Positions 23,628 to 38,841 of a stretch of 64,000 bases of DNA are shown here, one piece after another. The stretch's first letter is position 1. Each line of letters opens with the position of its first letter. The notes below the pieces were generated by a model that saw nothing but the letters and a program-made list of their open reading frames with translations, had not been told where the DNA came from and made no database searches. Position numbers and translations under genes: made by a program. This DNA comes from a virus, in IMG/VR virus record IMGVR_UViG_3300043499_000238, positions 32,001 through 96,000 of that record. One strand, written 5' to 3'.

Positions 23628-24038
23628 ATGGCCTCGAACAGCGATCGCAGACATCTCTCTACACCGGGAGATGGATCGCGTCCGGGGCCATGGTTGCCGT
23701 TCCAGTCGACCCGGCTCAACGTCGCTAGGTACGACTCGGGCCTGCAGCAGATCCAGGTCATCTTCCGCGACGGCACACCGTGGGTCTACGACCAGGTGCC
23801 CCGCAACGTGTGGCGCAACTTCCGTCGAGCACCGTCGCCCGGTAGGTACATCGAGCGGGTGCTCAACGGCTTCCCCTACTTCCAGGGATCGTTCAGCTAC
23901 TCAGGCCACCTCGACACGCGCGACGACGAGGAGTTCGGCGGCGACGTCGAGCCGGAGCGTCAGGTCGTCGGTCAGCAGTTCGGCGGGCCGAGGACAAGCG
24001 GCACGCCGCTCCAGTCGGTCGGCAATCCCTGGGTGTGA
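23628..24038 (+). CDS. KTSC-domain protein
   Basis: STRLNVARYD...IQVIFRDG..WVYDQVPRNVWRNFRRAPSPGRY matches the KTSC pattern. Confidence 0.8.
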   Translation: MASNSDRRHLSTPGDGSRPGPWLPFQSTRLNVARYDSGLQQIQVIFRDGTPWVYDQVPRNVWRNFRRAPSPGRYIERVLNGFPYFQGSFSYSGHLDTRDDEEFGGDVEPERQVVGQQFGGPRTSGTPLQSVGNPWV

Positions 24039-24340
24039 ACAAGGTCTGGCTCCACACCTACTGGTTGGCGTGGGGGCCGATCGCTCCGTCAGTGACGTCG
24101 CTCAGCGATCGCCAGCCACGCATCCAGCGTGCGTGGATGCGCTCGGTCGCACCTCCCTACTACGAGGGCATCGGCATCGCCATCCGCTTCGGCGTCAACA
24201 CCCTCCGCTTCGGTACCTGCACACCGCTCGGCAGTGTCACCCGGCCGGACCTCGATGACGGGATCATCGAGTCGATCTTCGGCCGCCCCGTCGACAAGGA
24301 GCAGGAGGGCACATGGGGTGGCGTAGAGAGAAGCGCCTGA
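24035..24340 (+). CDS. Hypothetical protein
   Basis: ORF coupled to the KTSC gene. Confidence 0.6.
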   Translation: MNKVWLHTYWLAWGPIAPSVTSLSDRQPRIQRAWMRSVAPPYYEGIGIAIRFGVNTLRFGTCTPLGSVTRPDLDDGIIESIFGRPVDKEQEGTWGGVERSA

Positions 24341-24561
24341 CCGAGTACCCGGTGCACGAGGCGGTGGAGGTCTCGTACCAACGCTCGCTGACGATGGACC
24401 GCACGACGTTGCTGACGTGGTCCGAGGCGACGGCCGTCAACATCGATCGGCTGCTCGCCGAGTACCGCAAGGGCCAGCCCAGTGCTGCCATCGAAGCGCA
24501 CCACCAAGCGCTCCAGCTCGTCGGGATGACGCGCGCCATCTACGAGCAGGCCATCGTCTGA
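24313..24561 (+). CDS. Small helical hypothetical protein
   Basis: ORF with SD AGGAGG. Confidence 0.6.
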   Translation: MGWRREKRLTEYPVHEAVEVSYQRSLTMDRTTLLTWSEATAVNIDRLLAEYRKGQPSAAIEAHHQALQLVGMTRAIYEQAIV

Positions 24562-24592
24562 GGTCATGAAACGGTGTCGTACGGTTACCTCT

Positions 24593-24808
24593 ATGAATGT
24601 TCCCGTGATCGCTCGCCAGGTGGCCGACGCCCTCCAGCGGGTGGTCCCTGGTACCGACCTGACCTCCGAGACGTTCGAGGAGGACCGGGTTCGGGTGACG
24701 ATGAACTGGCGCGACGCACTCGTGCTGATCGACTTCATCGAGGAGCACAAGAAGGCGATGAGACCTAGCCAGCGTCAGGTGTCGCTCTTCGGCCCTACCG
24801 ATCAGTGA
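24593..24808 (+). CDS. Small protein ending in QVSLF
   Basis: TACGGT-7 nt-ATG leaderless start. Confidence 0.6.
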   Translation: MNVPVIARQVADALQRVVPGTDLTSETFEEDRVRVTMNWRDALVLIDFIEEHKKAMRPSQRQVSLFGPTDQ

Positions 24809-25242
24809 CGCCGATTGCTGACGAGCTTCATCGGCGGGACGGCGACATACAGCCGGTAGTCCCACGGCCCCAGTGTCTCGCCCGGTCGCTCCCTGAGCGG
24901 CCAGCCAAGCTTGCGTAGGTCGCGCACCCGGCGGAGCGCCTCCGAGCCGTGGACGAGCAGGTCTCTGCCAGGCACCCATTGACGGTTGCGGATCCACAGG
25001 TGCCGCCAGCACTTCCACATCACCGTGCCTCGTACCGCCTCGTACTCCAGCGCCGCCAGGATTGAGTTCCAGGTGCCGTCGTAGTTGGGGCCGACGACCG
25101 CATGCCCATTGCGTTTCGTCTGCAGCTCGAACGTCCCCTCGACATGTCCTATCGGTGCACTCTCCCCGTGCAGTGCATACTCCCGTCCCTGCAGGTCACG
25201 GAAGATGTACGGCTTGCGTTCAGGCACATCGTTGATTATCAC
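24802..25242 (-). CDS. Possible winged-HTH protein
   Basis: GSEALRRVRDLRKLGWPL...WDYRL resembles a wHTH recognition helix and wing. Confidence 0.5.
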   Translation of the reverse strand: MIINDVPERKPYIFRDLQGREYALHGESAPIGHVEGTFELQTKRNGHAVVGPNYDGTWNSILAALEYEAVRGTVMWKCWRHLWIRNRQWVPGRDLLVHGSEALRRVRDLRKLGWPLRERPGETLGPWDYRLYVAVPPMKLVSNRRH

Positions 25243-25274
25243 ACACTCGGAGAGGCCCGTTCTAAGCTGCCCGT

Positions 25275-26861
25275 GTGACGGCAGCCGTACGCGAGATCGC
25301 CGAAGAGCGATACGAGGAGTACGTCGAGGAGCAAGAGGAGGCCGAGGACTTCGTTGAGGTCGACCCCGACTCCGAGGAGTTCATCCACGAGCTGACGATG
25401 CGCTGCATGGTCTTCATGGAGGCGCTGGCCGAGATACAGCTCCACCCCTATCAGAAGGATCTGGCGTACCGCACGATCCAGTCGGTGTTGCTCAACGACG
25501 GCGCCGAGATCACCGCCCTGTGGGCACGCCAGTCCGGCAAATCGACAGCGCTGGCGTCGATCATCGCGACGATGATGGTGCTGCTGCCCAAGTTGGCGGC
25601 CGCCTATCCCGAGCACTTCCCCCAGTTCGCTCGTGGGTTCCTCGTCGGAGTGTTTGCTCCGACTGAGGAGCAGGCGTACACGGTGTGGTCGAAGATCCAC
25701 GACATCCTCACCTGCAAGCGCGGCCGCGAGATCCTCAGCGACGAGGACATCGAGGACGTGCCGCAGAAGGAAGGCTCCAAGGTCAAGGTCGTCCGCCTCG
25801 TCAACAGCGGCTCGCTGTGCCGCATGCAGACCGCCAACCCGAAGGCGCAGATCGAGTCGAAGACGTACCACTTCGTGCTCCTCGATGAGAGCCAGGACTG
25901 CGACTCGGAGAAGGCACGCAAGTCGATCTTCCCGATGCTCGCCTCGACCAACGGCACCAAGGTGTTCACCGGCACCTGCTCGCGCAAGCGCAACTTCTTC
26001 TATGACGCCATCCAGGCCAACAAGCGCAAGGCGCTCCGTCGAGGCTCCCGGCAGGACCACTTCCAGTACAACTGGAAGGTCGTCGTCAAGTTCAACAGCT
26101 TCTACAAGAAGTACATCGCTGGGGAGAAGGAGCGGCTCGGCGAGGACAGTGACGAGTTCCGCCTGAGCTACGCATGCGAGTGGTTGCTGGAGTCGGGGAT
26201 GTTCGTGACCGAGGAGTCGTTGGACTTCCTTGGCGATCCCGGCATGGAGATCCAGCCGTGGTTCGTGGTCGACAAGTGCGTTGCGGGAATCGACGTGGCG
26301 CGCACCAAGGACTCGACCGTCGTCACCGTGATGTGGGTCGACTGGAACAACCCCGACCCGTACGGCTACTGCCAGCACCGCATCCTCAACTGGCTGGAGA
26401 TCCACAACAAGCTGTGGGAGCAGCAGTACGCACAGATCATCGAGTTCCTGTCGCACTACAACGTCGCGATCGTCGGTGTCGACGGTCAGGGCATGGGCCA
26501 GCCCGTCGGCGAGCGCATCGCCCACGAGATGCCGTGGGTCGACGTGCGCATCCTCAGCTCGGACCAGTCCACCCAGGAGAAGCGCTGGAAGCGGCTCAAG
26601 GCGTTGATCGAGCGGCGCATGTTCATCTACCCGGCCGGTCGCAAGACCAAGAGGCTGCGCTGCTACAAGCGCTTCCGGCTGCAGTTCGAGGAGCTGGAGA
26701 CGGCGTACAGCGGCAAGTACATGCTCGCCGCAGCGCCCGAGGCGGTCAACGCCTTCGATGACTACTGCGACTCGGCGGCCCTCGGCGTGGCCGTCACCGA
26801 GGACGAGGACTTCGGCGTGGTGCAGGTGGTCGACTCACCGTTCCATGGTCGCCACCGGTAA
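25275..26861 (+). CDS. terL: Terminase large subunit
   Basis: Walker A ARQSGKS, Walker B VLLDESQ, coupling motif FTGT, nuclease motifs GIDVAR and FDDYCDS. Confidence 0.95.
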   Translation: MTAAVREIAEERYEEYVEEQEEAEDFVEVDPDSEEFIHELTMRCMVFMEALAEIQLHPYQKDLAYRTIQSVLLNDGAEITALWARQSGKSTALASIIATMMVLLPKLAAAYPEHFPQFARGFLVGVFAPTEEQAYTVWSKIHDILTCKRGREILSDEDIEDVPQKEGSKVKVVRLVNSGSLCRMQTANPKAQIESKTYHFVLLDESQDCDSEKARKSIFPMLASTNGTKVFTGTCSRKRNFFYDAIQANKRKALRRGSRQDHFQYNWKVVVKFNSFYKKYIAGEKERLGEDSDEFRLSYACEWLLESGMFVTEESLDFLGDPGMEIQPWFVVDKCVAGIDVARTKDSTVVTVMWVDWNNPDPYGYCQHRILNWLEIHNKLWEQQYAQIIEFLSHYNVAIVGVDGQGMGQPVGERIAHEMPWVDVRILSSDQSTQEKRWKRLKALIERRMFIYPAGRKTKRLRCYKRFRLQFEELETAYSGKYMLAAAPEAVNAFDDYCDSAALGVAVTEDEDFGVVQVVDSPFHGRHR

Positions 26862-26885
26862 CGGGGCGGGAACTACGCTGGGACC

Positions 26886-27287
26886 ATGACGATTGCACCG
26901 AACCCGCTCTTCCCCGAGCGGACGTCCCAGGCGTACGAGCTGGCCTTCGCTGCGAACCCTGCGGGCAACCGCGGGGACATGCGGTTCGAGGAGGGCATCG
27001 GCACCGACACTGACGTCCCCAACGACTTCGTGCGTGGAGCGTTCATGGACCCGACCTCGGTTCCCGGGCGGCTCAGCCACAACAACCCCGACATGGTCTA
27101 CAAGAGCGCCGAGGAGACGATGCGCGAGCGCGCACACGTCGGCAGCGCTTCGTGGATCGAGGCGCCAGCGATGCTGAGCGACTTCGTCGCCGGAGCGGGC
27201 GTCGGCCAGACGCCGCCCTCCTTCGAGATGATCCGCGTGCCCGGCACCTACATGTACCGCCGGGCGCCAACGGTCATTGACGACTGA
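26886..27287 (+). CDS. Phage head-region protein
   Basis: Directly follows terL with its own leaderless promoter (TACGCT-6 nt-ATG). Confidence 0.7.
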   Translation: MTIAPNPLFPERTSQAYELAFAANPAGNRGDMRFEEGIGTDTDVPNDFVRGAFMDPTSVPGRLSHNNPDMVYKSAEETMRERAHVGSASWIEAPAMLSDFVAGAGVGQTPPSFEMIRVPGTYMYRRAPTVIDD

Positions 27288-27293
27288 GCTGCC

Positions 27294-27854
27294 GTGGCGC
27301 GCTCGTACAAGTCAGCGCTGCCGACGTGGTCGACGTACACGCCGCACGTCTCCCCGCTCGGGATCCAGGCGCCTGTGAACCAGGAGACCATCTGGCGTAA
27401 TCGAGCGCGCCAGTTCTCGCCTGCTGGCATCCACGGCGAGATGAACCGCGCCATGCTCGGGATCCAGGCACAGGTGAAGGGCACGGGCGCCGGGTACGCC
27501 GCTGTGCAGACGGTTGGCCACACGCCACTCATCGACGCCGCACAGGGCTTCGCCAACCAGCGCCGCGACGCCCAGCGCACCTGGGCGGCGCACATGCAGG
27601 ACTCGCTCCAGCGTCAGGCGCCCGAGGACATGGTCGCCCCCGGCGAGGCGCCTCCGCAGGAGGAGACGCAGGTGCGTGCCGCACGTACCGCACCCGACAC
27701 CGTCAACCCCGCCGACGTGCAGACCCAGGACGCCGCTCGCGGCTCCGCCGAGCAGATGGTCGGAGGCGTGCTGCGCTCGAAGCGCTCCGGCCCGTCCACC
27801 ATCCCCGTGTCGATGACCCAGTCGGGCATCTTCGTACCCACGAGAGGCAGATAG
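27294..27854 (+). CDS. Hypothetical, largely disordered protein
   Basis: ORF track. Confidence 0.6.
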   Translation: MARSYKSALPTWSTYTPHVSPLGIQAPVNQETIWRNRARQFSPAGIHGEMNRAMLGIQAQVKGTGAGYAAVQTVGHTPLIDAAQGFANQRRDAQRTWAAHMQDSLQRQAPEDMVAPGEAPPQEETQVRAARTAPDTVNPADVQTQDAARGSAEQMVGGVLRSKRSGPSTIPVSMTQSGIFVPTRGR

Positions 27855-27856
27855 CC

Positions 27857-28012
27857 ATGGCAGATCAGGACTACGTCGGGCAGCTCGCCCCCGGTGAAGA
27901 GGCGGCCGGTGGGCCGATCGATGAGCCGTACCAGGGCTTCGCTCCGTACATGCACCAGGGCCAGTCGATGAACGAGGCGTTCGCCGAGGGCGCTCAGGCC
28001 GGTCGCTACTGA
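27857..28012 (+). CDS. 51-aa acidic peptide (not in the ORF track)
   Basis: MADQDYVGQLAPGEEAAGGPIDEPYQGFAPYMHQGQSMNEAFAEGAQAGRY; SD GAGG. Confidence 0.55.
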   Translation: MADQDYVGQLAPGEEAAGGPIDEPYQGFAPYMHQGQSMNEAFAEGAQAGRY

Positions 28013-28051
28013 TCGACCCGGCCCGATAGGGCCGTCGCTTACGCTGGGCGT

Positions 28052-28534
28052 GTGGACACCAACTGGGGTATCAGTCTCGTCCGCACCATCGTTGTTCCGC
28101 TCTCGATCGGCTTGCTCGTCTCGTTGCTGATCCCCTTCGGTGGCGGCTCTTCCTCCTTCGTCGGGATCGCAAGAGTCGCCACCATCTTCTCGATCGCCGT
28201 GGCGTGGTATGTCTGCGCCCGTCTGGCCCAGCGCGCACGCCCGCAGCTCGGCTTCCTCCTCGGAGTCTCTGTCCGACCTCGGTACGGAGAGGACGGTGAA
28301 CACGAGCTAGCGCCGTCCCTCCGACGCACGCTCGTGCCGCTCGCCGTCGCCACGGCGGTCGGGTGCTTGGTTGCGGCGTTCATCGGGGGCGCCACGCCTG
28401 CACTGGCCGTCGTGGCGGCCGCACTTACGTACTACGGAAGCCTCCGCTACATCGAGGTCTACGCCCGTCCCTACTCGACAGCTCGGGACGTCGCTGGGTG
28501 GTTCCTCGGCGCCCGAGCTGTCCCCTACTACTGA
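28052..28534 (+). CDS. Four-TM membrane protein
   Basis: Four hydrophobic segments; leaderless TACGCT-6 nt-GTG. Confidence 0.7.
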   Translation: MDTNWGISLVRTIVVPLSIGLLVSLLIPFGGGSSSFVGIARVATIFSIAVAWYVCARLAQRARPQLGFLLGVSVRPRYGEDGEHELAPSLRRTLVPLAVATAVGCLVAAFIGGATPALAVVAAALTYYGSLRYIEVYARPYSTARDVAGWFLGARAVPYY

Positions 28535-28543
28535 GGAGTCGAC

Positions 28544-29998
28544 GTGCCGAGGAAGAAGGCCGCAGCAGCGCCAGGACCGATGTCACCGGACGAGCTGCGC
28601 GCCGCATACATCCCCGGCGTGGGGCCGCAGGGATCGATCAACGGCGTCAAGCCGCACCGCACCGCCGCCGGTCGTGAGAAGCAGCGGGCCGCCCGTGAGG
28701 AGATGCACCGCACGATCCCGCAGCAGGAGCTGCCCGAGTCGGGCGAGGCCGTGCGCATGCCCAACCCGAAGTCAGCCAAGTTCCACAAGCCAGCCGTGAT
28801 GAGCGAGGCCGAGTCGGTGCAGGCGGCCAACGCTCGTGCGTCTCGCGCTGCGTGGGAGCAGACGCCCGAGGGCAAGGCGCGCACCGCCAACATGAGCGAC
28901 CTGATGGGCGCCGATGCCAAGGGGATGTCGATCCGCCAGGTGTACGGAGCCAAGAAGGCACCGACGCGCGACCCCGGCCCGGTGACCGGTCAGCTACAGC
29001 TCCCCGGCATGGCCGACCCCCACGCAGCTCCGCGCCCGGCGCGCTGGGAGGAGCTGTCGGAGGCCAACCGCAGCCACGCCCTCAAGGGGCTGGCGCTTCA
29101 CGGCACGAGCATCGAGCAGATGATCGGCGACTATGGAGCGCAGATCGACCAGGCCCACCACCGCGCCTGGCAGGCCGGTGCCGAGCGGCCCTTCTCGCAG
29201 GAGTTCTACAGCGTCGGTGAACCACGCCAGGTGATCAGCCAGTCGGCGCACGAGCTGGGCATCCCCGAGCAGATCCACTCGCACATGAACGCCCTCACGT
29301 CGCCGAACACCAAGTTCAGCCAGCGCACCAAGGAAGGCGAGACGGTCTACCCCAACAACCGCGCCGCCGAGCACGCAGTGCGTCACGTCCAGCAGGGTGG
29401 TGATCCGGCCGACCTGACCAACGCCTTCTCGACCACCGGCATGGAGCGCTGGAAGGGCGAGCACGCCCAGGGCTACGAGAAGAACATGATCAAGGCGGCG
29501 TCGTCGTACCAGCAGCACGAGGCTGGCGTTCCTCCGGCGGAGTGGGTGACCGGCAAGAAGGGCGAGGGTCCGTTCGAGTCATCGCCCAAGACCGGCCCGT
29601 ACTCCAACTCGTGGAACGACTCGCACCCGCAGTTCTTCGTCAGCGACGTGCACTCCGGTGGCGGCGGCTTCCTCCCCCACCTCTCATCGGACAAGCCGGT
29701 GCCGATGGAGGGCGGTCAGATCAAGCGCACCGCCTCGGGCAAGAAGGCGTCGGTGAAGAGCGAGCGCGAGGTCGGCATCGAGCGCACGCCGTTCTTCCAT
29801 GCCGCTGCCGACTACGCAGCGCGCCAGGCGCACGAGGCCCGCGGCATCGCTCACGTACGGGAAGGCCAGGCGGTGCAGTGGGGCGAGGAGCAACTGCAGC
29901 GCGGTGAGGCCGGGATGCGCGGCGCCCCCAAGCAGCGCGACGTCTACCCGGCGGCGGTCAACACCAAGCAGTTCAACCACCCGTCGCTGTTCGACTGA
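28544..29998 (+). CDS. DUF7178-like / HhH-glycosylase-fold-like protein with disordered N-terminus
   Basis: ALTSPNTKF..N, SPKTGPYSNSW, FFVSDVH and QAVQW appear in the order I recall for this family. Confidence 0.5.
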   Translation: MPRKKAAAAPGPMSPDELRAAYIPGVGPQGSINGVKPHRTAAGREKQRAAREEMHRTIPQQELPESGEAVRMPNPKSAKFHKPAVMSEAESVQAANARASRAAWEQTPEGKARTANMSDLMGADAKGMSIRQVYGAKKAPTRDPGPVTGQLQLPGMADPHAAPRPARWEELSEANRSHALKGLALHGTSIEQMIGDYGAQIDQAHHRAWQAGAERPFSQEFYSVGEPRQVISQSAHELGIPEQIHSHMNALTSPNTKFSQRTKEGETVYPNNRAAEHAVRHVQQGGDPADLTNAFSTTGMERWKGEHAQGYEKNMIKAASSYQQHEAGVPPAEWVTGKKGEGPFESSPKTGPYSNSWNDSHPQFFVSDVHSGGGGFLPHLSSDKPVPMEGGQIKRTASGKKASVKSEREVGIERTPFFHAAADYAARQAHEARGIAHVREGQAVQWGEEQLQRGEAGMRGAPKQRDVYPAAVNTKQFNHPSLFD

Positions 29999-30008
29999 GG
30001 AGACCACG

Positions 30009-30200
30009 ATGAGCAACTACGAGAACGAGCGGGAGATGTGGGACGACATCGCCCGCAACGATCGCCCGAGCGGCCGCATGATCCGTCGGGTCGGTGTGCA
30101 CCCCAGCAACTTCGGCAAGGGACCGGCGCTGCAGAAGAACGCGAGCGGAAGTGGGTACCACGTCAAGGGCGCCCCCGGCTTCGAGGACGATCCCGACTGA
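30009..30200 (+). CDS. Small hypothetical protein
   Basis: SD GAGGAG; ORF. Confidence 0.55.
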   Translation: MSNYENEREMWDDIARNDRPSGRMIRRVGVHPSNFGKGPALQKNASGSGYHVKGAPGFEDDPD

Positions 30201-30231
30201 TGGCCAGTTACCACTACCCAAGGGGAAGACA

Positions 30232-30450
30232 ATGAAGCAGCTCGCAACCGTCATGCTCGCCGAGATCATGGACTCGCCGGACTTCGCCGAGATCATGTTC
30301 CTCGTGGCGTTCATCCTGTTCGTCATCGAGGTCGTGCGTCTCGCCGTCGGCCGCGGCTCGGCGTGGGACTTCCACTGGATCCTCGTCGTCGCCGGTCTCG
30401 CCTGCATCTCTCTCGGGCTGCTCGCCCTACCGACCGGCGCAGCACCGTGA
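30232..30450 (+). CDS. Two-TM membrane protein
   Basis: Two hydrophobic helices. Confidence 0.65.
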   Translation: MKQLATVMLAEIMDSPDFAEIMFLVAFILFVIEVVRLAVGRGSAWDFHWILVVAGLACISLGLLALPTGAAP

Positions 30451-30557
30451 CGCCAGCCGTGCTGTCGGCGATCCTCGCTGATGGCATCTATGTCGGCGGC
30501 GGCTTCCTGCTGCTGGTGCTCGTCATCATCCTGATCGTCATCCTGCTGCGGAGATAG
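30447..30557 (+). CDS. 36-aa single-TM peptide
   Basis: GIYVGGGFLLLVLVIILIVILLRR. Confidence 0.6.
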   Translation: MTPAVLSAILADGIYVGGGFLLLVLVIILIVILLRR

Positions 30558-30559
30558 CG

Positions 30560-30775
30560 ATGGCCGCCCACGATCATCTCGGCGCCCAGTTCGGTGTCGG
30601 CGACACCGTGCACGTACCAGGCCACGGGCCGGTCACCGTCGAGTCGATGAACAAGCGCTACTTCTCCGGCACCACGGCGTCCGGTGAGCGTCTCGGTCAG
30701 ACCGGCATCGGTCTGGCCGCCGGGCAGGGGATGCGTGGCGGCACCCCGTGGCGGGTCGAGAGAGGCGCCGAGTAG
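30560..30775 (+). CDS. Small SH3/KOW-like protein with N-terminal DHLGAQF tag
   Basis: FGVGDTVHVPGHGPVTVES beta-rich pattern. Confidence 0.6.
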   Translation: MAAHDHLGAQFGVGDTVHVPGHGPVTVESMNKRYFSGTTASGERLGQTGIGLAAGQGMRGGTPWRVERGAE

Positions 30776-30778
30776 CTC

Positions 30779-31573
30779 GTGACGATCCGAGGCCGTATCT
30801 ACCGAGGGGAGGTGCGCCACGCCGTTCCGACGTACCAGCACCCCGACCCAGCGGCGCATGCGGCCGAGGATCCCGAGGGCTTCCTCCACCAGTGGATGCA
30901 GCCGCACTACCCGTACCCGAAGGGCTGGACCGGCGACGCTCCCACCGTCGGCCAGCACTGGACGCGCTCGCCGCAGAGCATCCCCGAGCGCTTCATCGAG
31001 CCGGTGCTGCTGCGCCCGCAGCCGGGTGTGCCGATGGGCAAGCGTGAGCAGACCGCCGTGATGCGCCGGGAGGCGACCGAGCAGGACACGGGTGGCCCGG
31101 GCTACGGCATGCCCGGCCACGAAGAGCACCAGGAGATGATGCGCAAGTACGCGGCGCATGCCGACCGAGCTGACCGTCAGGGCATCAACACGTACCACGA
31201 TCTCTCCGGCGGCGACCCGGACCGCCCGGGAGCGGCCAAGCCGTACAAGATGGCCGTGGTGTGGGAGGGCCAGCACCATGAAGCTGCCGAGCAAGGCACC
31301 AACTACGAGGACGAGCTGAACATCCCCATGGGTGAGCACGTCACCGTCACTGGTGCGCGCATCTACGTACCGAAGCCAGGCGTGGAGCACGACTTCCGGG
31401 CGCGCCACCCGTCGGTGTTCACGCCCGAGGAGCACGCCCACGCACGGGCCGACGTGATCACTCGATCGGCGTACAGCCACATCGACCCCCACTCGTCTAT
31501 CCCTTGGAGCCGGATCCAGTTCGAGAACGCTCAGCAGCTCAAAGTCGATCGCTACCGGGGAGGGTCGCGCTGA
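30779..31573 (+). CDS. Putative ADP-ribosyltransferase-fold protein
   Basis: IYRG...GQHWTRS...EDEL, the R-S/T-ExE order of ART folds. Confidence 0.5.
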   Translation: MTIRGRIYRGEVRHAVPTYQHPDPAAHAAEDPEGFLHQWMQPHYPYPKGWTGDAPTVGQHWTRSPQSIPERFIEPVLLRPQPGVPMGKREQTAVMRREATEQDTGGPGYGMPGHEEHQEMMRKYAAHADRADRQGINTYHDLSGGDPDRPGAAKPYKMAVVWEGQHHEAAEQGTNYEDELNIPMGEHVTVTGARIYVPKPGVEHDFRARHPSVFTPEEHAHARADVITRSAYSHIDPHSSIPWSRIQFENAQQLKVDRYRGGSR

Positions 31574-31583
31574 GCTACAGTGA

Positions 31584-31910
31584 TCTTGAACGTTGGCGTG
31601 AAGAAGGGGACGAGTTATGCGACAACCGGCTCGCCCTGGAGTAGTCGCTGACGACGGGGTCGGGCCGCAGGCACGCAGGTCCGGTTGGTCCGACCCCGAC
31701 CATTCGATGGAGGGCACGTACTGGTGATCTCGATCGGTGCTGGTGAAGCACGGGCACTTGCCCCTGACGCTTTCCTTGGATGCGACGTACAGCCTTCTGG
31801 TTCGCCGGACTGGCCGAGGCGGGACACCATGGTCTGTCGTTCAGGGAGAGAGACCCGGATGGATCCAGAGACCGACGAGGGCATCGGGTAGGCGTTCACG
31901 GACGTTGAGA
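31584..31910 (+). ncRNA. Candidate large structured non-coding RNA (about 325 nt)
   Basis: -10 TACAGT at 31576-31581; 5' and 3' ends complementary; at least six internal helices, a UUCG loop and a possible pseudoknot; no credible ORF in an otherwise gene-dense region. Confidence 0.6.
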
Positions 31911-31936
31911 AGTGCGGGGGGACCGTGATCCTCCCA

Positions 31937-32197
31937 ATGCGGCGACGTGCCCTCCCTCAATCCAGCGAGCAGTACGGTTGGTCCATGGCCAAGCACGAGC
32001 ACATGACGCCGGTCGACGCCGTCACCCACGCCGCGCTCATCGGGCACTTGATCCGCGGCACGGTGGTCGAGGGCAAGAGCTTCGTGGAGGCACACGCCGA
32101 TGCCCGCAAGGCTGTTGGCGCCGGAGCGGAGAGCCACGTCCGTCACGCCGGTCCTGCGATCGATGAGGCGCTCTACCCGTCGTGGGCGCAGCCATAG
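31937..32197 (+). CDS. Small His-rich hypothetical protein
   Basis: ORF track. Confidence 0.55.
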   Translation: MRRRALPQSSEQYGWSMAKHEHMTPVDAVTHAALIGHLIRGTVVEGKSFVEAHADARKAVGAGAESHVRHAGPAIDEALYPSWAQP

Positions 32198-32233
32198 CTC
32201 CCCCGTGATCGGGGCCAGATCTACGCTGGGGCC

Positions 32234-32701
32234 ATGACGACCCCTGCTCCCGTCCTCACGATCACGCCCGCCTCCGTGAACCGGACGGCCGCCGATCTCA
32301 CCCCCACCGTGAACCTCGCCGACACGGCGACGCACACGCCCGTCGCCACCGGCCGCTCGTTCCGGTTCGACGCCGTTGCCGTGAAGGCGACCGTCGGCGC
32401 TACCGGAGCAGGCATCTCCTCCGCAGTGCCGTACCCCGTCAACCTTGCCGCCGGTACTCGCCAGGGCAGCGTCGCCACGACGAATACCGACGGCACCGGC
32501 ACGAGCGCCAACGTTGCGCTCACCGTGACCGACGCAGTCGCCACGCAGTACGCCACGCCGGTCTACGTCGAGAACAACAAGAACGTCAGCCGCTGGTTGC
32601 CCGAGCAGCTCCCCAACGAGTACCGCGACCCCACGCTGTCGACGCCGGGGCTGCCCACGGCGACGGGCGTGTACAACGCCCGTACCCGCGGCGTCATCTG
32701 A
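32234..32701 (+). CDS. Thr/Ala/Val-rich beta protein, probably virion structural or decoration
   Basis: Ig-like composition; leaderless TACGCT-6 nt-ATG. Confidence 0.55.
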   Translation: MTTPAPVLTITPASVNRTAADLTPTVNLADTATHTPVATGRSFRFDAVAVKATVGATGAGISSAVPYPVNLAAGTRQGSVATTNTDGTGTSANVALTVTDAVATQYATPVYVENNKNVSRWLPEQLPNEYRDPTLSTPGLPTATGVYNARTRGVI

Positions 32702-32702
32702 C

Positions 32703-33800
32703 GTGCCTCGGGTGGCCGAGCCACCTGGGCAGGCTGGGTCCACCCGTCTAGCCCGCGAGCACGTCGACCGTACGCGCGACCTGACAGCAGCGGCCGCTGC
32801 GCCGGGCGACACCAACGCTGCTGTCGACGCTCACCAGCACGCCGTCAGTCGTGTGCAGGACCACGCCGGGCGCATGGGCGTCAACCTCGTTGACCTCCCG
32901 CCGATGAACCCCAAGCCGTTGCGGCCGGGACAGGTGAGCCAAGGCACGCTGTGGGACTCCCGCTCGATGAAGCCGTCGCCGGAGCACCAGTGGGCGGCGC
33001 ACGGCTACTCCCCCGAGCGCCGCGACGCCATCGCCGCCGCGATCCCCAAGGTGGGTGTCTCGTCTTCCTTCTCGTACCCCGGCGGTAGCACGGGCGTGCC
33101 GTACACGGGCGAGGTCACTGGCGGTGTGTATCCGGCGATCGGTCAAGTCGGCGGCAAGCGCAAGAACCAGGTGGCTGCGACACGCAACTCGGTGGTCGAC
33201 ATCCTCGCTCGATCGACGGCGCCGTTGGGCGACATCGTCAACGCCACGCCGGACATCAAGGTGCAGCCGATGGCGAGAGCGGCCGGTCAGCACCGCACGA
33301 AGATGCGCGGGTGGGAGGACGAGCCGTTCGTCCGTGAGATCAAGCTCCACCCCGGTGGCGGCCCGGCGCGCACCCGTGCCCAGGTCGAGCACACCGTGCT
33401 CCACGAGTTCGGGCACAACGTCGACTTCGAGCGTGACCGTAAAGCCTTCACCACCAACGCACGATTCAACCTCCCGGCGGTGGAGGGGTTCGCCGAGGGC
33501 TACGCCGCCAAGCACCGGGTGGGGCGGCGCAACGAGCCACCCGTTCCGTACTCCGGCGTTGCCGCCTACAAGAGCATGCACGGTCGCTCCTCGTTCGGTG
33601 AGAACTTCGAGCGTGCAAGCGGGCGATCGCTCCCTCAGGCGATGGGTGCGCAGAAGCATCTCGGTGAGCAGTGGTCGCAGGGCAAGCTCTTCACCGGATC
33701 GAGCGAGACCGGTTTCGTCAAGGATGAGAACGAGCCACTCCCCACGATCTCGAATGCCGAGTGGGACCACCTCACCGGGCGCAACCGTGCCCGCCGTTGA
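32703..33800 (+). CDS. Zincin-like metallopeptidase (HExxH)
   Basis: VLHEFGH followed by VEGFAEGYA (third-ligand Glu). Confidence 0.7.
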   Translation: MPRVAEPPGQAGSTRLAREHVDRTRDLTAAAAAPGDTNAAVDAHQHAVSRVQDHAGRMGVNLVDLPPMNPKPLRPGQVSQGTLWDSRSMKPSPEHQWAAHGYSPERRDAIAAAIPKVGVSSSFSYPGGSTGVPYTGEVTGGVYPAIGQVGGKRKNQVAATRNSVVDILARSTAPLGDIVNATPDIKVQPMARAAGQHRTKMRGWEDEPFVREIKLHPGGGPARTRAQVEHTVLHEFGHNVDFERDRKAFTTNARFNLPAVEGFAEGYAAKHRVGRRNEPPVPYSGVAAYKSMHGRSSFGENFERASGRSLPQAMGAQKHLGEQWSQGKLFTGSSETGFVKDENEPLPTISNAEWDHLTGRNRARR

Positions 33801-34101
33801 CCATCTCAACGGCGAGCTGTTCCACGGCACCGCTCACCCGTTCGAGCCGGGCGACATCGTCAGCCCCACCGACACCGAGCACACCGAGTTCCCGACGGCG
33901 TGGGCGACACCACGGATGGACGAGGCCAACCAGATCGCACGGGCCAAGGTGCGTCGGCACAACCGTCGCAACCCCGACGACCCAGCCACCGAGCACGTCT
34001 TCGCCGTCGAGCACATGAGCAAGCCGGTCGATGTGTGGGGACGAGCCAACGTCGCCGCAGACCCCGTTGGCTTCCGCGTACTACGTAGGGTTGGTCCGTG
34101 A
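33787..34101 (+). CDS. Arr-like ADP-ribosyltransferase domain protein
   Basis: LFHGTAHPFEPGDIVSP...WAT...VFAVE resembles the Arr N-terminal H-G-T...PGD motif; GTG start at 33787. Confidence 0.6.
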   Translation: MPAVDHLNGELFHGTAHPFEPGDIVSPTDTEHTEFPTAWATPRMDEANQIARAKVRRHNRRNPDDPATEHVFAVEHMSKPVDVWGRANVAADPVGFRVLRRVGP

Positions 34102-35789
34102 GCATCGCCTTCTGGCCTCCGAGCTACCGCGCCGGTACCTCGGACCTTGCCATCCAGATCTCGCCGCTCGGCCTGGTCGACCTCAGCAACGAGGAGATGG
34201 AGGTCCACGGCATCCGCCTCAGCAGGTACTCGCTCTACTGGGCGCACTACCTCGGCCACCACTGGGCGTACCGCCGTGAGGTCGGCGAGCCGCAGTTCAC
34301 GTTCAACTACGTGCGGGCACTGAGCGACTACCTCACGAACTTCACCTTCGGCCGTGGCGTCACCTTCCAGTCGCCGCCAGCGACCGCCGCCATCGTGCCC
34401 ACACTCCTCAAGCGAGTGTGGGAGGGCGACAACCGCAAGGCCGCACTGCTGTGGGAGATGGGACAGATCGCCTCGGTAACCGGCGACCTCTTCGTCAAGG
34501 TGGCGTACGAAGACCCGTTCGTTGACCCGGCGGGACGGGTCCATCCTGGCCGGGTTCGGATACTCCCTCTGAACCCGGCCAACTGCTTCCCGCAATGGCA
34601 CGAGCACGACCGCACACGGCTGCTCAGCTTCAAGCTCAAGTATCGCTTCTTCTCCACCGACCAGACCGGCACGCGCATCGTCAATACCTACGTCGAGCGC
34701 GTCACCGACAACGGCATCGAGGAGTACGTCAACGACGAGCTGATCTCGGCCCGCCCCAACCCGCTGGGCGTGATCCCGATCGTCTACATCCCCAACATCA
34801 TGGTGAGCGGCTCACCGTGGGGACTGAGCGACATCGGCGAGGTGATCCCGCTCAACCGTGAGTACAACGAGAAGGCGATCGAGATCTCCGACATCGTCAA
34901 CTACCACTCCGCTCCCGTCACGGTGATCACCGGGGCCAAGGTGCCGCAGTTGGAGAAGGGTGCGCGCAAGACGTGGTTCCTGCCCAAGGACGCCAAGGTC
35001 GAGACTCTGCAGTCCACCTGGCAGCTAGAGCACATGCTCGGCTACATGGAGGTCGTCAAGCGGGGCATGCACGAGATGACCGGCGTGCCGGAGCAAGCGC
35101 TCGGGCAGGTGCAGCCGATCAGCAACACCAGCGGCGTGGCGTTGGCGATCCAGTACGCGCCAACGATGCAGCGCTTCCGCATGAAGAAGAACAACTTCGA
35201 GACGGGCTTCCAACAGATCAACGAGCTGGTGCTCTTGACGCTGTTCCAGAAGGAACCCATGTCGATGCAGTTCAACCCCATGGAGGATCTCGCCCCCAAG
35301 CCGGGACAGCTCACAGCGCTCGATCCCGCTGACCCCAACAGCTACGAGACGTCGGTCTACTGGCCCGAGCCACTGCCGGTCGACGTGCTCGTCAAGCTCA
35401 ACGAGATCGCACAGAAGATGCAGCTCGGCATCGAGTCCAAGCGCGGTGCGCTCGCCGACCTCGGTGAGGAGTTCCCCGACGCCAAGCTCGCCGAGATCTT
35501 CGCTGAGATCCTCGAAGACTCCAAGGATCAGGGTGCGTTGCAGCTCCAGAACAGCGCCATCCAGTCGGCGATCGTTGCGCTCACCGGCATGGTGCCCCAG
35601 GGCGGCGAGGTGGCCGACACCGGACAGCAGGGTGCCGACAGCGGCTCGCCTGACGCTGGTGGTACCGGCATCATGCCTGGTCTCGTGCTCGATCAGAACA
35701 CGATGAACCTCATGAACGAGCTGACGACTCGGGCGTACCTGCCTCGCATGGGACAGTTCAGGAATCCCTCCAACGCAGGCATCGAGTAG
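34098..35789 (+). CDS. Portal protein (SPP1 gp6-like)
   Basis: 563 aa; NPLGVIPIVYIPN, GLSDI and SGVAL motifs; position before scaffold and capsid. Confidence 0.9.
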   Translation: MSIAFWPPSYRAGTSDLAIQISPLGLVDLSNEEMEVHGIRLSRYSLYWAHYLGHHWAYRREVGEPQFTFNYVRALSDYLTNFTFGRGVTFQSPPATAAIVPTLLKRVWEGDNRKAALLWEMGQIASVTGDLFVKVAYEDPFVDPAGRVHPGRVRILPLNPANCFPQWHEHDRTRLLSFKLKYRFFSTDQTGTRIVNTYVERVTDNGIEEYVNDELISARPNPLGVIPIVYIPNIMVSGSPWGLSDIGEVIPLNREYNEKAIEISDIVNYHSAPVTVITGAKVPQLEKGARKTWFLPKDAKVETLQSTWQLEHMLGYMEVVKRGMHEMTGVPEQALGQVQPISNTSGVALAIQYAPTMQRFRMKKNNFETGFQQINELVLLTLFQKEPMSMQFNPMEDLAPKPGQLTALDPADPNSYETSVYWPEPLPVDVLVKLNEIAQKMQLGIESKRGALADLGEEFPDAKLAEIFAEILEDSKDQGALQLQNSAIQSAIVALTGMVPQGGEVADTGQQGADSGSPDAGGTGIMPGLVLDQNTMNLMNELTTRAYLPRMGQFRNPSNAGIE

Positions 35790-35859
35790 CGTTCGACCTC
35801 TTCACGCTGGGTAGATAACCTCTACTGGCACAACGTCGAACCACCGCCGGAGGCTTTCA

Positions 35860-36717
35860 ATGTCGGACAGCAACACCATCCAGGTCGATCAGACGGGTGG
35901 GCAGCCCGCCAACAGCACAGGTGGTGCCAATCCGCTCAGTACCGGCAACGGCTTCCTCACTGGTGTGCAGCCCGCTGCACAGCCGGGGAGTGTGACGCAG
36001 ACCAACCCGCAGGGTCTGTCGGCGGCCGAGCTGGCGTTGGTTCAGCAGCACGCCGCCCAGGCTGCTCAGGCCGCCGTCGCACCGCAGGGCGAGACGCTCG
36101 CCGAGATGCAACAGCGCATGGCCGCCATGCAGACCGAGCTGGACGCCGCCCGTACCGCTCGTGAAGCGTCCGAGGCCGAGGCCGCTGCTGCCGAGCAGGC
36201 CCGCCTCGATGCCGAGCGTGCCGCCGCCGAGAGCACCATGTCGGCCACCGAGCTGGTCGGTCAGGTGCGTGCCGAGATGCAGGCCGAGTTCGCCGCGATC
36301 CAAGAGCGCGCCGCCGCCAGCGAGGCGCTGCTCGAACGTGAGCGTCGGTACAGCGCACTGCAGGACTACAAGGCGCAGCGTCTCGCCGACCCCGAGATCG
36401 CCGCCGCCGTGATGCCGCACCTCCACCCGTACATCGTTGGTGGCAGCGAGCAGGAGATCGAGGAAGCGATCGCTCGGGCGGCGCAGACGTCCAGCAGCAT
36501 CGTGGCCGAGTTCCAGCAGTACCAGCAGCAGTACCGCCAGCAGGCACCCGGCGTGTCGCCGACGGCGCCGACGACCGGCCCGCTGGAGCAGCAGCAGTCG
36601 ACGCGCCCGATGAGCGCACAGGAGATCGCGGCGCTCCCCGACGCCGAGTACGCACGGCTGCGGCCACAGTTGCTGCGCGCTGCGGGACAGCAGTTCCGCG
36701 CCCAGCGCGGAGGCTGA
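35860..36717 (+). CDS. Capsid scaffolding protein
   Basis: Ala/Glu/Gln coiled-coil protein between portal and major capsid. Confidence 0.8.
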   Translation: MSDSNTIQVDQTGGQPANSTGGANPLSTGNGFLTGVQPAAQPGSVTQTNPQGLSAAELALVQQHAAQAAQAAVAPQGETLAEMQQRMAAMQTELDAARTAREASEAEAAAAEQARLDAERAAAESTMSATELVGQVRAEMQAEFAAIQERAAASEALLERERRYSALQDYKAQRLADPEIAAAVMPHLHPYIVGGSEQEIEEAIARAAQTSSSIVAEFQQYQQQYRQQAPGVSPTAPTTGPLEQQQSTRPMSAQEIAALPDAEYARLRPQLLRAAGQQFRAQRGG

Positions 36718-36803
36718 TAGCTCCCGTCGTACGAAAGGGTCGAACTACTGTCTCTTGTAGGTCAGCAGCTCGTCTGATCGTCGCGACCTTCAAGGAGTAA
36801 CTC

Positions 36804-37931
36804 ATGCCCGATATCTCAGGTGGCATCTCGGGTACTGGCAACCTGTACTCGGGTGTGTCCGGTGGATCCAACCCGGCTGCCGTCCCGGTTGGTGGTGCCT
36901 TCCTCGGGGTGCAAGTGCCACCCGCCCCCAGCGGTCTCGTGACCCAGGGCTATCCGCAGGGGACGGCGATCACCGGCTCCACGACGATGACCCCCGCGGT
37001 CCAGACGATCTGGTCCAAGGAGATCCTCTTCCAGGCGATGCCCATCCTGAGGTTCGAGCAGTTCGCGGTCAAGAAGACCGAGCTGGGCGTCACCCCCGGC
37101 CTGACCGTGAACTTCATGAAGTACAACAACCTTGACGTCGACAGCGTCAACGGTGCGACCCTCACCGAAGGCATCCGCATGAGCACTCGTGCGCTGTCGG
37201 CCTTCCAGTTCCGCATCACGGTCGCCGAGCAGGGCACCGCCGTCGCCGTCTCCGAGCTGCTGCTGCACGCCTCGTTCGATGACGTGATGGCCTCGGCCTC
37301 TCGCCTGCTCGGGCGCCACATGGCGCAGTCGATGGACTACCAGGCCCGCAACACGCTGATGCTGGCGCCGGGGTCCGAGGTCTACGGCTACGACGACGCC
37401 GCCCCCTGGCAGGGCGCCTCGACCAACATCTACGAGCCGGGCACCAAGGCGGCCAACGCCGCCGCAGTGACCGGCGCCGTGGCCGCCACCAACAAGTACT
37501 ACCTCACCCCGCACACGGTGAAGGACGCAGTGCAGGCGCTGGCGTCGCTCAACATCCCCCGCCTCGGCGAGACGTACGTCATGTTCGCCCACCCGGCGCA
37601 GGCCCGCCGGTTGCGTGACTCCCCCGAGTTCATCGAGGTCACGAAGTACGCCGCCCCCGGCAACTTCATGCTCGGCGAGATCGGCCGCCTGTGGGACGTC
37701 GTCATCATCGAGACCACGCAGGTCAACTACGCCGCTGCGGGTGCGGGCAACAACTACTACGACGGGATCATGATCGGCGACAACGCCTTCGGTCACGCCG
37801 TGTCGTTGCCGGTCGAGCTTCGCGATGGCGGAGTCCTCGACTTCGGGCGTGAGCACGCTCTGGCGTGGTACGCCATTTGGGGTTGGGGTTCGATCACGCC
37901 GCAGGCCGTGGTCCGCGTCCTGACGAACTGA
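36804..37931 (+). CDS. Major capsid protein (N4-gp56-like, HK97 fold)
   Basis: LTEG, YVMFAHPAQ..LR and GEIGRLWDV motifs; strong SD; own -10 (TACTGT 36746); downstream terminator. Confidence 0.92.
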   Translation: MPDISGGISGTGNLYSGVSGGSNPAAVPVGGAFLGVQVPPAPSGLVTQGYPQGTAITGSTTMTPAVQTIWSKEILFQAMPILRFEQFAVKKTELGVTPGLTVNFMKYNNLDVDSVNGATLTEGIRMSTRALSAFQFRITVAEQGTAVAVSELLLHASFDDVMASASRLLGRHMAQSMDYQARNTLMLAPGSEVYGYDDAAPWQGASTNIYEPGTKAANAAAVTGAVAATNKYYLTPHTVKDAVQALASLNIPRLGETYVMFAHPAQARRLRDSPEFIEVTKYAAPGNFMLGEIGRLWDVVIIETTQVNYAAAGAGNNYYDGIMIGDNAFGHAVSLPVELRDGGVLDFGREHALAWYAIWGWGSITPQAVVRVLTN

Positions 37932-37958
37932 ACCCCTACCAAGCCCTCAGGGGTTGAG

Positions 37959-37988
37959 GACGGAGCGCCCCTTCGGGGGCGCTCTGTC
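37959..37988 (+). terminator. Terminator hairpin after the major capsid gene
   Basis: GACGGAGCGCCCC-TTCG-GGGGCGCTCTGTC. Confidence 0.75.
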
Positions 37989-38003
37989 GCGTACCGTGGA
38001 GGT

Positions 38004-38513
38004 GTGGCCGCCAGCGATCACGTCAACCCTGATCAGCTCCAGCTCTTCATGACGGGCACGGAGTTGAAGGGTGCGATCACCGACTCGATCGACCGCAATC
38101 CGCTCGGTGGCTTCGGCGGCACGATGGACAAGATGTGGGCGACCAAGCTGCGCCAGTCCAAGCGCCCCGCCGACCATCCCGGCCATGGTGCTGGCATCTA
38201 CCAGTCGATGAAGCAGCACGGGTGGAACCCACCCGAGCAGGTGTGGGGTGACGAGGCTCCTGGGTGGGACAACGCAGGCTTCGAGATCAACCACGTCCGC
38301 AAGTACGGAGGCATCCCCGAGTGGGACCGTACCGAGGTCTCTGTCACGGGCGCCCACCACCGCATCGCTGCGGCCGCCGACATCGAGGCCAAGACCGCTG
38401 GCACGAAGAGGCCGCGCACGATCTACTTCCCGACGGCCAACAACCAGTACGAGCACCCGTCGATCATCCCGCCAGATCGCACGCCAGCGAAGAGCGATCG
38501 CCTTGCCCGCTGA
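38004..38513 (+). CDS. ParB/Srx-like domain protein with N-terminal DHVNPDQL tag
   Basis: IYQSMKQHGW...VSVTGAHHRIAAA resembles the ParB-N GxHR motif. Confidence 0.55.
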   Translation: MAASDHVNPDQLQLFMTGTELKGAITDSIDRNPLGGFGGTMDKMWATKLRQSKRPADHPGHGAGIYQSMKQHGWNPPEQVWGDEAPGWDNAGFEINHVRKYGGIPEWDRTEVSVTGAHHRIAAAADIEAKTAGTKRPRTIYFPTANNQYEHPSIIPPDRTPAKSDRLAR

Positions 38514-38841
38514 CGAACACCTCGGGCTGCAGTTCGACTACGACAACCCCGAGCTGGGCACAGCGAAGGTCGTCCACCGGGTCACAGCGAGAGCAGGCCC
38601 ACTGTTGAACGAGGTGGGGCGGATGCTCTGGAACAGTCGCAGCATCCTCAACATCGACGTCGATCCGCAGCACGCACGTCGTGGGGTGGCGACATCGATG
38701 TGGAACGAAGGTCACCGGCTCGCCGAGCAGAACGCTCGCGTCCCCGCACCCAAGCACTCACCCGATCGCACAGCGATGGGCGATGCATGGGCGCGCTCGG
38801 TCGGAGGGCAGCTTCCCCGGCGCAAGAGAGACGCTGGTTAG
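38503..38841 (+). CDS. GNAT acetyltransferase with N-terminal EHLGLQF tag
   Basis: ILNIDVDPQHARRGVATSM (motif A) and TAMGDAWARS; TTG start at 38503. Confidence 0.75.
   Translation: MPADEHLGLQFDYDNPELGTAKVVHRVTARAGPLLNEVGRMLWNSRSILNIDVDPQHARRGVATSMWNEGHRLAEQNARVPAPKHSPDRTAMGDAWARSVGGQLPRRKRDAG

Follow-up and report, generated by a model that had tools for sequence, protein, structure and literature searches.

Phage T4 marks its internal proteins IPI-III and Alt with a capsid targeting sequence (CTS), an N-terminal leader of about 10 residues (PMC3012670). In phage P1, an N-terminal signal loads the anti-restriction enzyme DarB into the head; its critical residues are 6-10, and the first 30 residues suffice (PMC9024508). 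Polyvalent proteins and MuF- or portal-fused effectors, surveyed by Iyer, Burroughs, Anand, de Souza and Aravind in 2017, are also thought to be injected, and the word "leader" does not occur in the text of that survey (PMC5512222). Here we examine a window of 64,000 nucleotides, bases 32001-96000 of the 111,140-bp IMG/VR record IMGVR_UViG_3300043499_000238 (genome label G000), 65.7% G+C. In it, unrelated proteins begin with a common peptide of 11 residues, M-x-A-x-[DE]-H-[LV]-[GNS]-x-[QE]-[FLW], referred to below as the tag. Genome coordinates are those of the whole record and all others those of the window; G- and L-numbers denote the related contigs and loci compared.

Like the tag, the T4 CTS is an N-terminal leader on unrelated, diverse and fast-evolving cargo that includes an ADP-ribosyltransferase (ART), with the genes scattered (PMC3012670; PMC5512222). 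The two differ in that their sequences are unrelated, and the T4 leader is cut off at the Glu-terminated head-protease motif ([LI]-x-E) that forms its end. For T4 packaging is demonstrated; here it is proposed from sequence, for a member of a BRock-like myovirus clade of Actinomycetota. The critical residues of the P1 DarB signal are positioned like the D-H-L core (residues 5-7) of the G000 tag, but that signal is known for DarB in the stepwise Dar assembly pathway and is not common to tens of cargo families. Polyvalent proteins share with the G000 cargo a repertoire of ART, ParB, zincin-type peptidase and GNAT domains, a portal-terminase phage and a predicted delivery with the DNA. They carry at least two disparate effector domains per polypeptide, in contrast to the separate single-domain tagged proteins. 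In the MuF-fused effectors an N-terminal MuF domain (SPP1 gp7) carries the effector; MuF (PF04233) had no match in the whole G000 genome, while the control matched.

Staphylococcus phage 80alpha has an L27-like N-terminal leader on its capsid and scaffold proteins that is cleaved by Prp. It is likewise a short N-terminal peptide with a Q-F-type end, common to several phage proteins, but its consensus is another one, its hosts are Bacillota and the proteins that it tags are structural. A context for cleavage by Prp is not evident at the G000 tag, for which no dedicated test was made.

A common N-terminal peptide on unrelated proteins

Four genes of the window, all on the plus strand, encode proteins that start with the tag. 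The first product is a 71 amino acid (aa) protein with a small domain of unknown function (30560..30775), in which the tag makes up residues 1-11. The second is an Arr-like ART of 104 aa (33787..34101), whose gene overlaps the upstream zincin gene by 14 nt. A ParB/Srx-like protein of 169 aa (38004..38513) is encoded just past the terminator of the capsid gene and is followed by a short GNAT-like protein of 112 aa (38503..38841), the two genes overlapping by 11 nt. A preliminary description of this DNA, made from the sequence alone, had reported near-identical peptides at these four N-termini, and we found each of them in place behind an ATG (30560), a GTG (33787 and 38004) or a TTG (38503) start codon. 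The G+C content at third codon positions is 0.76-0.85 in all four open reading frames (ORFs), a composition of the coding type.

The regular expression proposed in that description had been expected to exceed its frequency in shuffled sequence. It did so: the six frames of the complete 111-kb genome contain four matches, and the shuffles (n=200) gave a mean of 0.10 and a maximum of 2. All four matches lie exactly four codons past a start codon. Since start codons are 4.7% of codons, this anchoring by itself has a probability of about 5e-6, in addition to that of the count. Twenty copies of a looser core, x-A-x-[DE]-H-[LVI], are present in the genome, seven of them anchored to a start codon where 0.94 would be expected. 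Two further tagged genes, both encoding paralogs of the ParB-like protein, lie beyond the window at genome 16695 and 17045, which brings the genome to six, and a degenerate copy of the tag is found at 21502 on the minus strand. The output of an unbiased all-against-all comparison of N-termini was dominated by low-complexity frames.

From relatives of G000 we collected 53 distinct tagged proteins judged credible, which BLAST places in about 23 clusters. As in T4, a short N-terminal leader is thus found on unrelated non-structural proteins. M1, A3, [DE]5, H6 and [GNS]8 are present in 100% of the 53 and L7 in 89%; the regular expression used for collection fixes the residues allowed, and the informative features are the dominance of single residues and the independent matches to DNA patterns. 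Position 2 is A, P, S or T, and from this small residue removal of the initiator Met is predicted. The codons vary at synonymous sites (GAC, GAT, GAG and GAA; CAC and CAT; five Leu codons), and ATG, GTG and TTG starts are all used. This synonymous variation indicates that selection acts on the peptide.

The tag is not tied to a given protein. Homologs of the GNAT-like protein in G002 and G003 lack it, and a homolog of the 71-aa protein in L005 starts with M-A-I-R-G-R instead. As the same cargo can be found with the tag, without it or with another leader, the tag is portable, in agreement with its preliminary description as a modular element on interchangeable enzymes. The second leader, M-[ATS]-I-R-G-[RK], begins five different small proteins (30779-31573; L005:6777, 6966 and 7142; L011:3996, minus strand), among them this L005 homolog. 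In the window it is represented by a 264-aa protein starting with M-T-I-R-G-R (30779..31573, plus strand), which has this leader in common with the four others.

Distribution of the tag

Orthologs in related IMG/VR contigs retain the tag. A degenerate DNA pattern for a start codon followed by the tag matched 24 IMG/VR loci, about 20 of them clearly real, in contigs of 43-68% GC, and the consensus of the matches is M-A-A-S-D-H-L-G-P-Q-F. All five IMG/VR sites of the start-free pattern A-x-D-H-L-G-P-Q-F are start-anchored. In metagenomes it matched 33 sites, of which eight are ATG-anchored with M-[AGS]-A-[ST]; the remaining 25 seem to be due to chance or to lie off frame. Every credible viral or metagenome copy of the tag is N-terminal, the sole internal copy being a peptide in the zincin tail described below. 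A domain-boundary motif of fused polyproteins was considered and rejected, since the start-free patterns gave no credible internal copy in IMG/VR or the metagenomes.

Among 185,579 cellular species genomes the pattern had 76 matches, nearly all in antisense or chance frames, and the tag was found in no isolate bacterial genome. The tag looks real in only three small contigs of metagenome-assembled genomes (MAGs), probably phage DNA that was binned with them. Matches to the DNA pattern in about 20 Micromonospora genomes (L112, L121, L123, L124, L132 and others) apparently lie in the antisense frame of a conserved gene, and call for caution in screens for the tag with DNA patterns.

The large tag-bearing contigs tested were G001-G005. 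Three of them are 95-106 kb long and estimated to be complete, two of these with terminal repeats. The major capsid protein of G000 (36804..37931, plus strand; Pfam Phage_capsid_3) is 58-77% identical to its counterpart in all five. The portal protein, of the SPP1 type (34098..35789, plus strand; Pfam SPP1_portal, E 1.9e-24), is 39-68% identical across the clade, and most other shared proteins are 25-45% identical. Only head proteins are conserved across the tag-bearing contigs to a degree comparable with the tag. Shorter tag-bearing fragments are syntenic with other parts of G000. The nearest cultured phages are the Streptomyces myoviruses BRock, GiJojo, pSt2308, LuckySocke and Alone3, with capsid proteins about 59-64% identical to that of G000; BRock is a Borockvirus (PMC7453282). 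The tag is restricted to one BRock-like myovirus clade.

Tagged proteins and their cargo

The tagged proteins are mostly of 70-170 aa and single-domain, and their types match those of polyvalent and other injected phage proteins, as had been suggested. An AlphaFold2 model of the ART has a mean predicted local distance difference test (pLDDT) score of 78. The score is below 50 for residues 1-7, ahead of a first strand that begins at residue 11; judging from these low-confidence residues, the tag would be an exposed extension. A Foldseek search with the model returned Arr proteins as its top three matches (9iba, 9iaf and 2hw2; E 1.2e-3, probability 1.00, template modelling score 0.62-0.64), followed by other ARTs. 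The His of the H-G-T motif, H13, does not vary among 15 sequences, the tag directly abuts the strand that bears this motif, and Pfam Arr-ms scored below its cut-off. The modelled fold thus argues for the Arr-like label given earlier to this protein.

In the alignment of the ParB-like cluster (A2), the tag and a G-H-H-R sequence (the G-x-x-R box) are invariant. The profile of this alignment matches the PDB ParB structure 6t1f at E 2e-4, and ParB_N matched a member of the family at E 1e-5, just under the cut-off. The ParB/Srx label is supported by the invariant G-H-H-R and the ParB profile match. In this cluster the Q and the F of the tag are separated by an insertion of three residues, L-x-[LM]; the AlphaFold2 model, with a pLDDT of 62, is too weak to place the tag. 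The GNAT label fits the family of the protein at 38503, in which Pfam Acetyltransf_1 was matched by four of seven members (best E 3.6e-5), and did not extend to the window's own protein, which was not matched. That protein has motif A ([RQ]-x-x-G-x-[AG]) and, at about 110 aa, is shorter than a full GNAT. By tblastn the Arr-like cargo had no match in a cultured phage, and the GNAT-like cargo gave only a weak match to Mycobacterium phage Tonenili and no close cultured-phage homolog. A second ART, a small ParB-like protein and an HExxH protein of 422 aa are new tagged families in the related IMG/VR contigs.

The gene upstream of the ART gene encodes a 365-aa zincin-like protein without an N-terminal tag (32703..33800, plus strand). 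Its earlier zincin label is weakly supported, by an HExxH sequence at which Pfam Zincin_1 matches at E 0.039. The C-terminal tail of this ORF contains, after an in-frame ATG, the peptide M-G-A-Q-K-H-L-G-E-Q-W (33642..33674, plus strand), which fits the tag pattern save for K in place of D or E. It is identical in the orthologs of L003 and L004 (75%-identical ortholog) despite diverged flanks. This peptide may mark an internal start, or act as a pseudo-substrate or as a site of autoprocessing. The 422-aa HExxH protein of L004 (5880-7148) is distinct and bears the tag at its N-terminus.

C-terminal variants of the tag had also been proposed. The zincin copy looks like a true one, while the others (at 29957, at 23961, and at the ends of the scaffold and portal proteins) are resemblances of three or four residues. 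The G-Q-Q-F-R end of the scaffold and the M-G-Q-F-R end of the portal protein are not conserved in seven relatives, and the mimicry of scaffold or portal C-termini was rejected on that ground. Two labels of untagged proteins were also checked: KTSC is confirmed for the protein at 23628 (Pfam E 1.4e-12), and a 484-aa protein labelled "HhH-like" has no match in Pfam or PHROG.

Possible roles of the tag

We favor, tentatively and at somewhat less than even chances, the peptide being an N-terminal address tag that loads enzymes into the virus particle. After removal of the initiator Met, a flexible extension of 10 residues (small-A-x-[DE]-H-L-[GNS]-x-Q-F) would stand ahead of a compact single-domain enzyme. 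This leader would dock on a conserved inner component of the assembling head, such as the capsid protein, the portal or the scaffold core. Docking would encapsidate interchangeable effectors, among them Arr-like ARTs, ParB/Srx proteins, short GNATs and zincins, which might then be delivered together with the DNA. The leader would in this way take the place of the MuF or portal fusions and the polyvalent proteins in which other phages employ these domain types. Capsid loading fits best for four reasons: an exposed, portable N-terminal peptide is found on enzyme types thought to be injected (PMC5512222), no MuF domain was detected in G000 to carry them, the tag is as unusually well conserved as the head proteins, and T4 and P1 offer precedents. 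By this scheme the major capsid protein and the portal protein are the candidate receptors.

Several observations weigh against capsid loading. Four of the six tagged genes of G000 lie between the terminase and tail genes, which speaks for loading, but the pair at genome 16695 and 17045 is in the replication block. G001 has three tagged genes in tandem, 54 kb away from its capsid gene, and G004 has one among its tail genes. The replication-block pair of G000 and the G001 trio contradict the preliminary view that the tag belongs to head modules. Pfam scans of the head genes revealed no head-maturation protease. The HK97-type (S78) protease family, PF04586, had no match when its control matched, and PF03420 (gp21-type, S77) had no match, yet its control gave none either. 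No cleavage motif closes the tag, which ends in [QE]-[FLW] followed by variable residues. When gene content was compared between five tag-bearing and two tag-free genomes, none of the G000 proteins was specific to the tag-bearing set; no dedicated receptor was thus identified, and a dedicated receptor gene was rejected on this presence and absence. The cultured relatives were likewise rejected as tag carriers, with no copy in the whole BRock genome and a single, out-of-frame match to one DNA pattern in GiJojo. The invariant His and the fixed distance from the N-terminus could equally serve chemistry or recognition unrelated to the capsid.

A less probable, though not negligible, explanation is docking of the leader on a target in the host or on a phage partner outside the virion, for instance the replisome through a clamp-like Q-L-x-[LM]-F sequence, or a shared chaperone or inhibitor. 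Different enzymes would then be brought to one site and not into the capsid. The ParB-like cluster speaks for this, as its tag runs Q-L-x-[LM]-F-M and fits the bacterial clamp-binding consensus. The clamp pentapeptide Q-L-x-L-F is present in most members of that cluster and absent from most other tags, however, which end in Q-F and unrelated residues without the L-x-L-F part. To our knowledge A3, [DE]5, H6 and L7 belong to no clamp-binding consensus, which also counts against docking on the clamp. Several tagged genes are located in regions of replication or nucleotide metabolism. The tag is kept in contigs of 39-68% GC, the hosts of which probably differ, and a universally conserved target would fit this range. 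Docking on the host leaves the strict N-terminal anchoring unexplained, and the only phages with the tag belong to a single capsid clade, with no copy in an isolate bacterial genome. Should the leader nevertheless bind a host target, that target would be a new hub attacked by many phage enzymes.

It is more doubtful that the leader is a processing or regulatory propeptide that activates or times the enzymes, read by a peptidase (possibly the adjacent zincins) or by modification or degradation that depends on the N-terminus. Because the distance to Met1 is exact and residue 2 is small, Met is predicted to be removed and to leave a defined free N-terminus, which would suit such a role. So would the zincin gene next to the tagged ART gene, with the conserved copy of the tag in its product's own tail as a possible pseudo-substrate or autoprocessing site, and the second, unrelated HExxH protein of L004 that is itself tagged. 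Against this, the residues past the tag vary freely, so that no conserved scissile site is apparent, and the Q-F end of the ART tag enters the first catalytic strand without a linker. Zincin homologs were detected only in close relatives and in G004, and not in the tag-bearing G001, G002 and G003; the failure to detect an S78 head protease counts against a propeptide as well.

That the similarity is a nucleic-acid feature, such as a cassette for translation initiation or recombination, or a remnant without function left by shared ancestry of the 5' ends, is highly improbable and essentially excluded: all copies are at gene starts and tagged genes cluster in hot spots beside HNH-like genes, as cassette exchange would have it, but their codons differ at synonymous sites, their start codons and upstream contexts differ (led by a Shine-Dalgarno sequence, coupled by overlap or placed after a terminator), and six positions are at or near 100% identity in genomes whose proteins are on average 25-45% identical and whose GC content spans 39-68%.

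Returning to capsid loading, the particular form that we propose, with slightly more reserve, concerns a BRock-like clade with genomes of about 90-115 kb and without a detectable MuF domain or HK97-type head protease. In these phages the uncleaved 10-residue tag and the second leader, M-x-I-R-G-[RK], would load freely exchangeable, host-modifying single-domain enzymes, with the unusually conserved interior of the capsid or portal as receptor, like a polyvalent protein broken into tagged genes. The motif was not found in a literature search. New here are the motif itself, the clade that carries it and the apparent absence of a protease. If capsid loading is correct, short capsid targeting tags reach beyond T4 and P1 to phages of the actinobacterial type, and delivery as separate genes is open to effector domains that usually occur as polyvalent or MuF fusions. 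Injected effectors could then be recognized in metagenomes by a simple sequence rule, which already marks about 23 cargo clusters, many of unknown function, and foreign proteins could be packaged into Streptomyces-type phages with the help of a small tag.

Genomic neighborhood of the tagged genes

Tagged genes recur at two hot spots. One is the portal-capsid region and the other a conserved pair of genes encoding proteins of 169 aa and 432 aa (genome 17965-18474 and 18917-20215). The pair has no Pfam match and adjoins tagged genes in G000, G001, G003, L011, L024 and L029. A gene for a Cys-rich protein of 184 aa (G003:87494-88048; homologs in L016, L025 and L106) stands beside tagged genes in four contigs. 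It is possibly an HNH-type homing endonuclease, and its recurrence as a neighbor hints that the cargo cassettes are mobile.

After the capsid gene there is a G+C-rich hairpin (37964-38003), followed by T-A-C-C-G-T and G-G-A-G-G directly before the GTG at 38004. Near-identical boxes precede tagged GNAT-like genes in L017 and L023. The box upstream of 38004, C-G-T-A-C-C-G-T-[TG]-G-A-G-G, is unique in G000, and a shared promoter was rejected for this reason.

The large terminase gene (25275..26861, plus strand; Pfam Terminase_6C/6N) opens an expanded accessory block of about 7 kb before the portal gene. The interval from terminase to portal (26886-34097) is about 7.2 kb in G000 compared to about 2.4 kb in BRock. 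It contains the genes for the 484-aa protein, which is of unknown function, small membrane proteins, two leader-tagged proteins, the zincin and the ART. The scaffolding protein is encoded between portal and capsid (35860..36717, plus strand); it has a weak match to Pfam Phage_scaffold and its GiJojo homolog is annotated as a scaffolding protein. Tail and sheath genes come after the major capsid gene in the window. In G003 the portal ORF is upstream of the capsid gene (33565-34446), and the frame that holds the portal homolog is open for 1121 codons, about twice the length of a portal; going by this reading frame, the G003 portal may be fused to an upstream domain.

The ends of G000 (genome 1-148 and 110993-111140) form a direct repeat of 148 bp with 98.6% identity, in a record that IMG/VR classes as linear without end repeats. 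It may stem from overlap in the assembly or belong to a terminal repeat. A Thr/Ser/Pro-rich protein of 677 aa with an N-terminal signal-like segment is encoded on the minus strand (20708-22741), immediately upstream of the late block.

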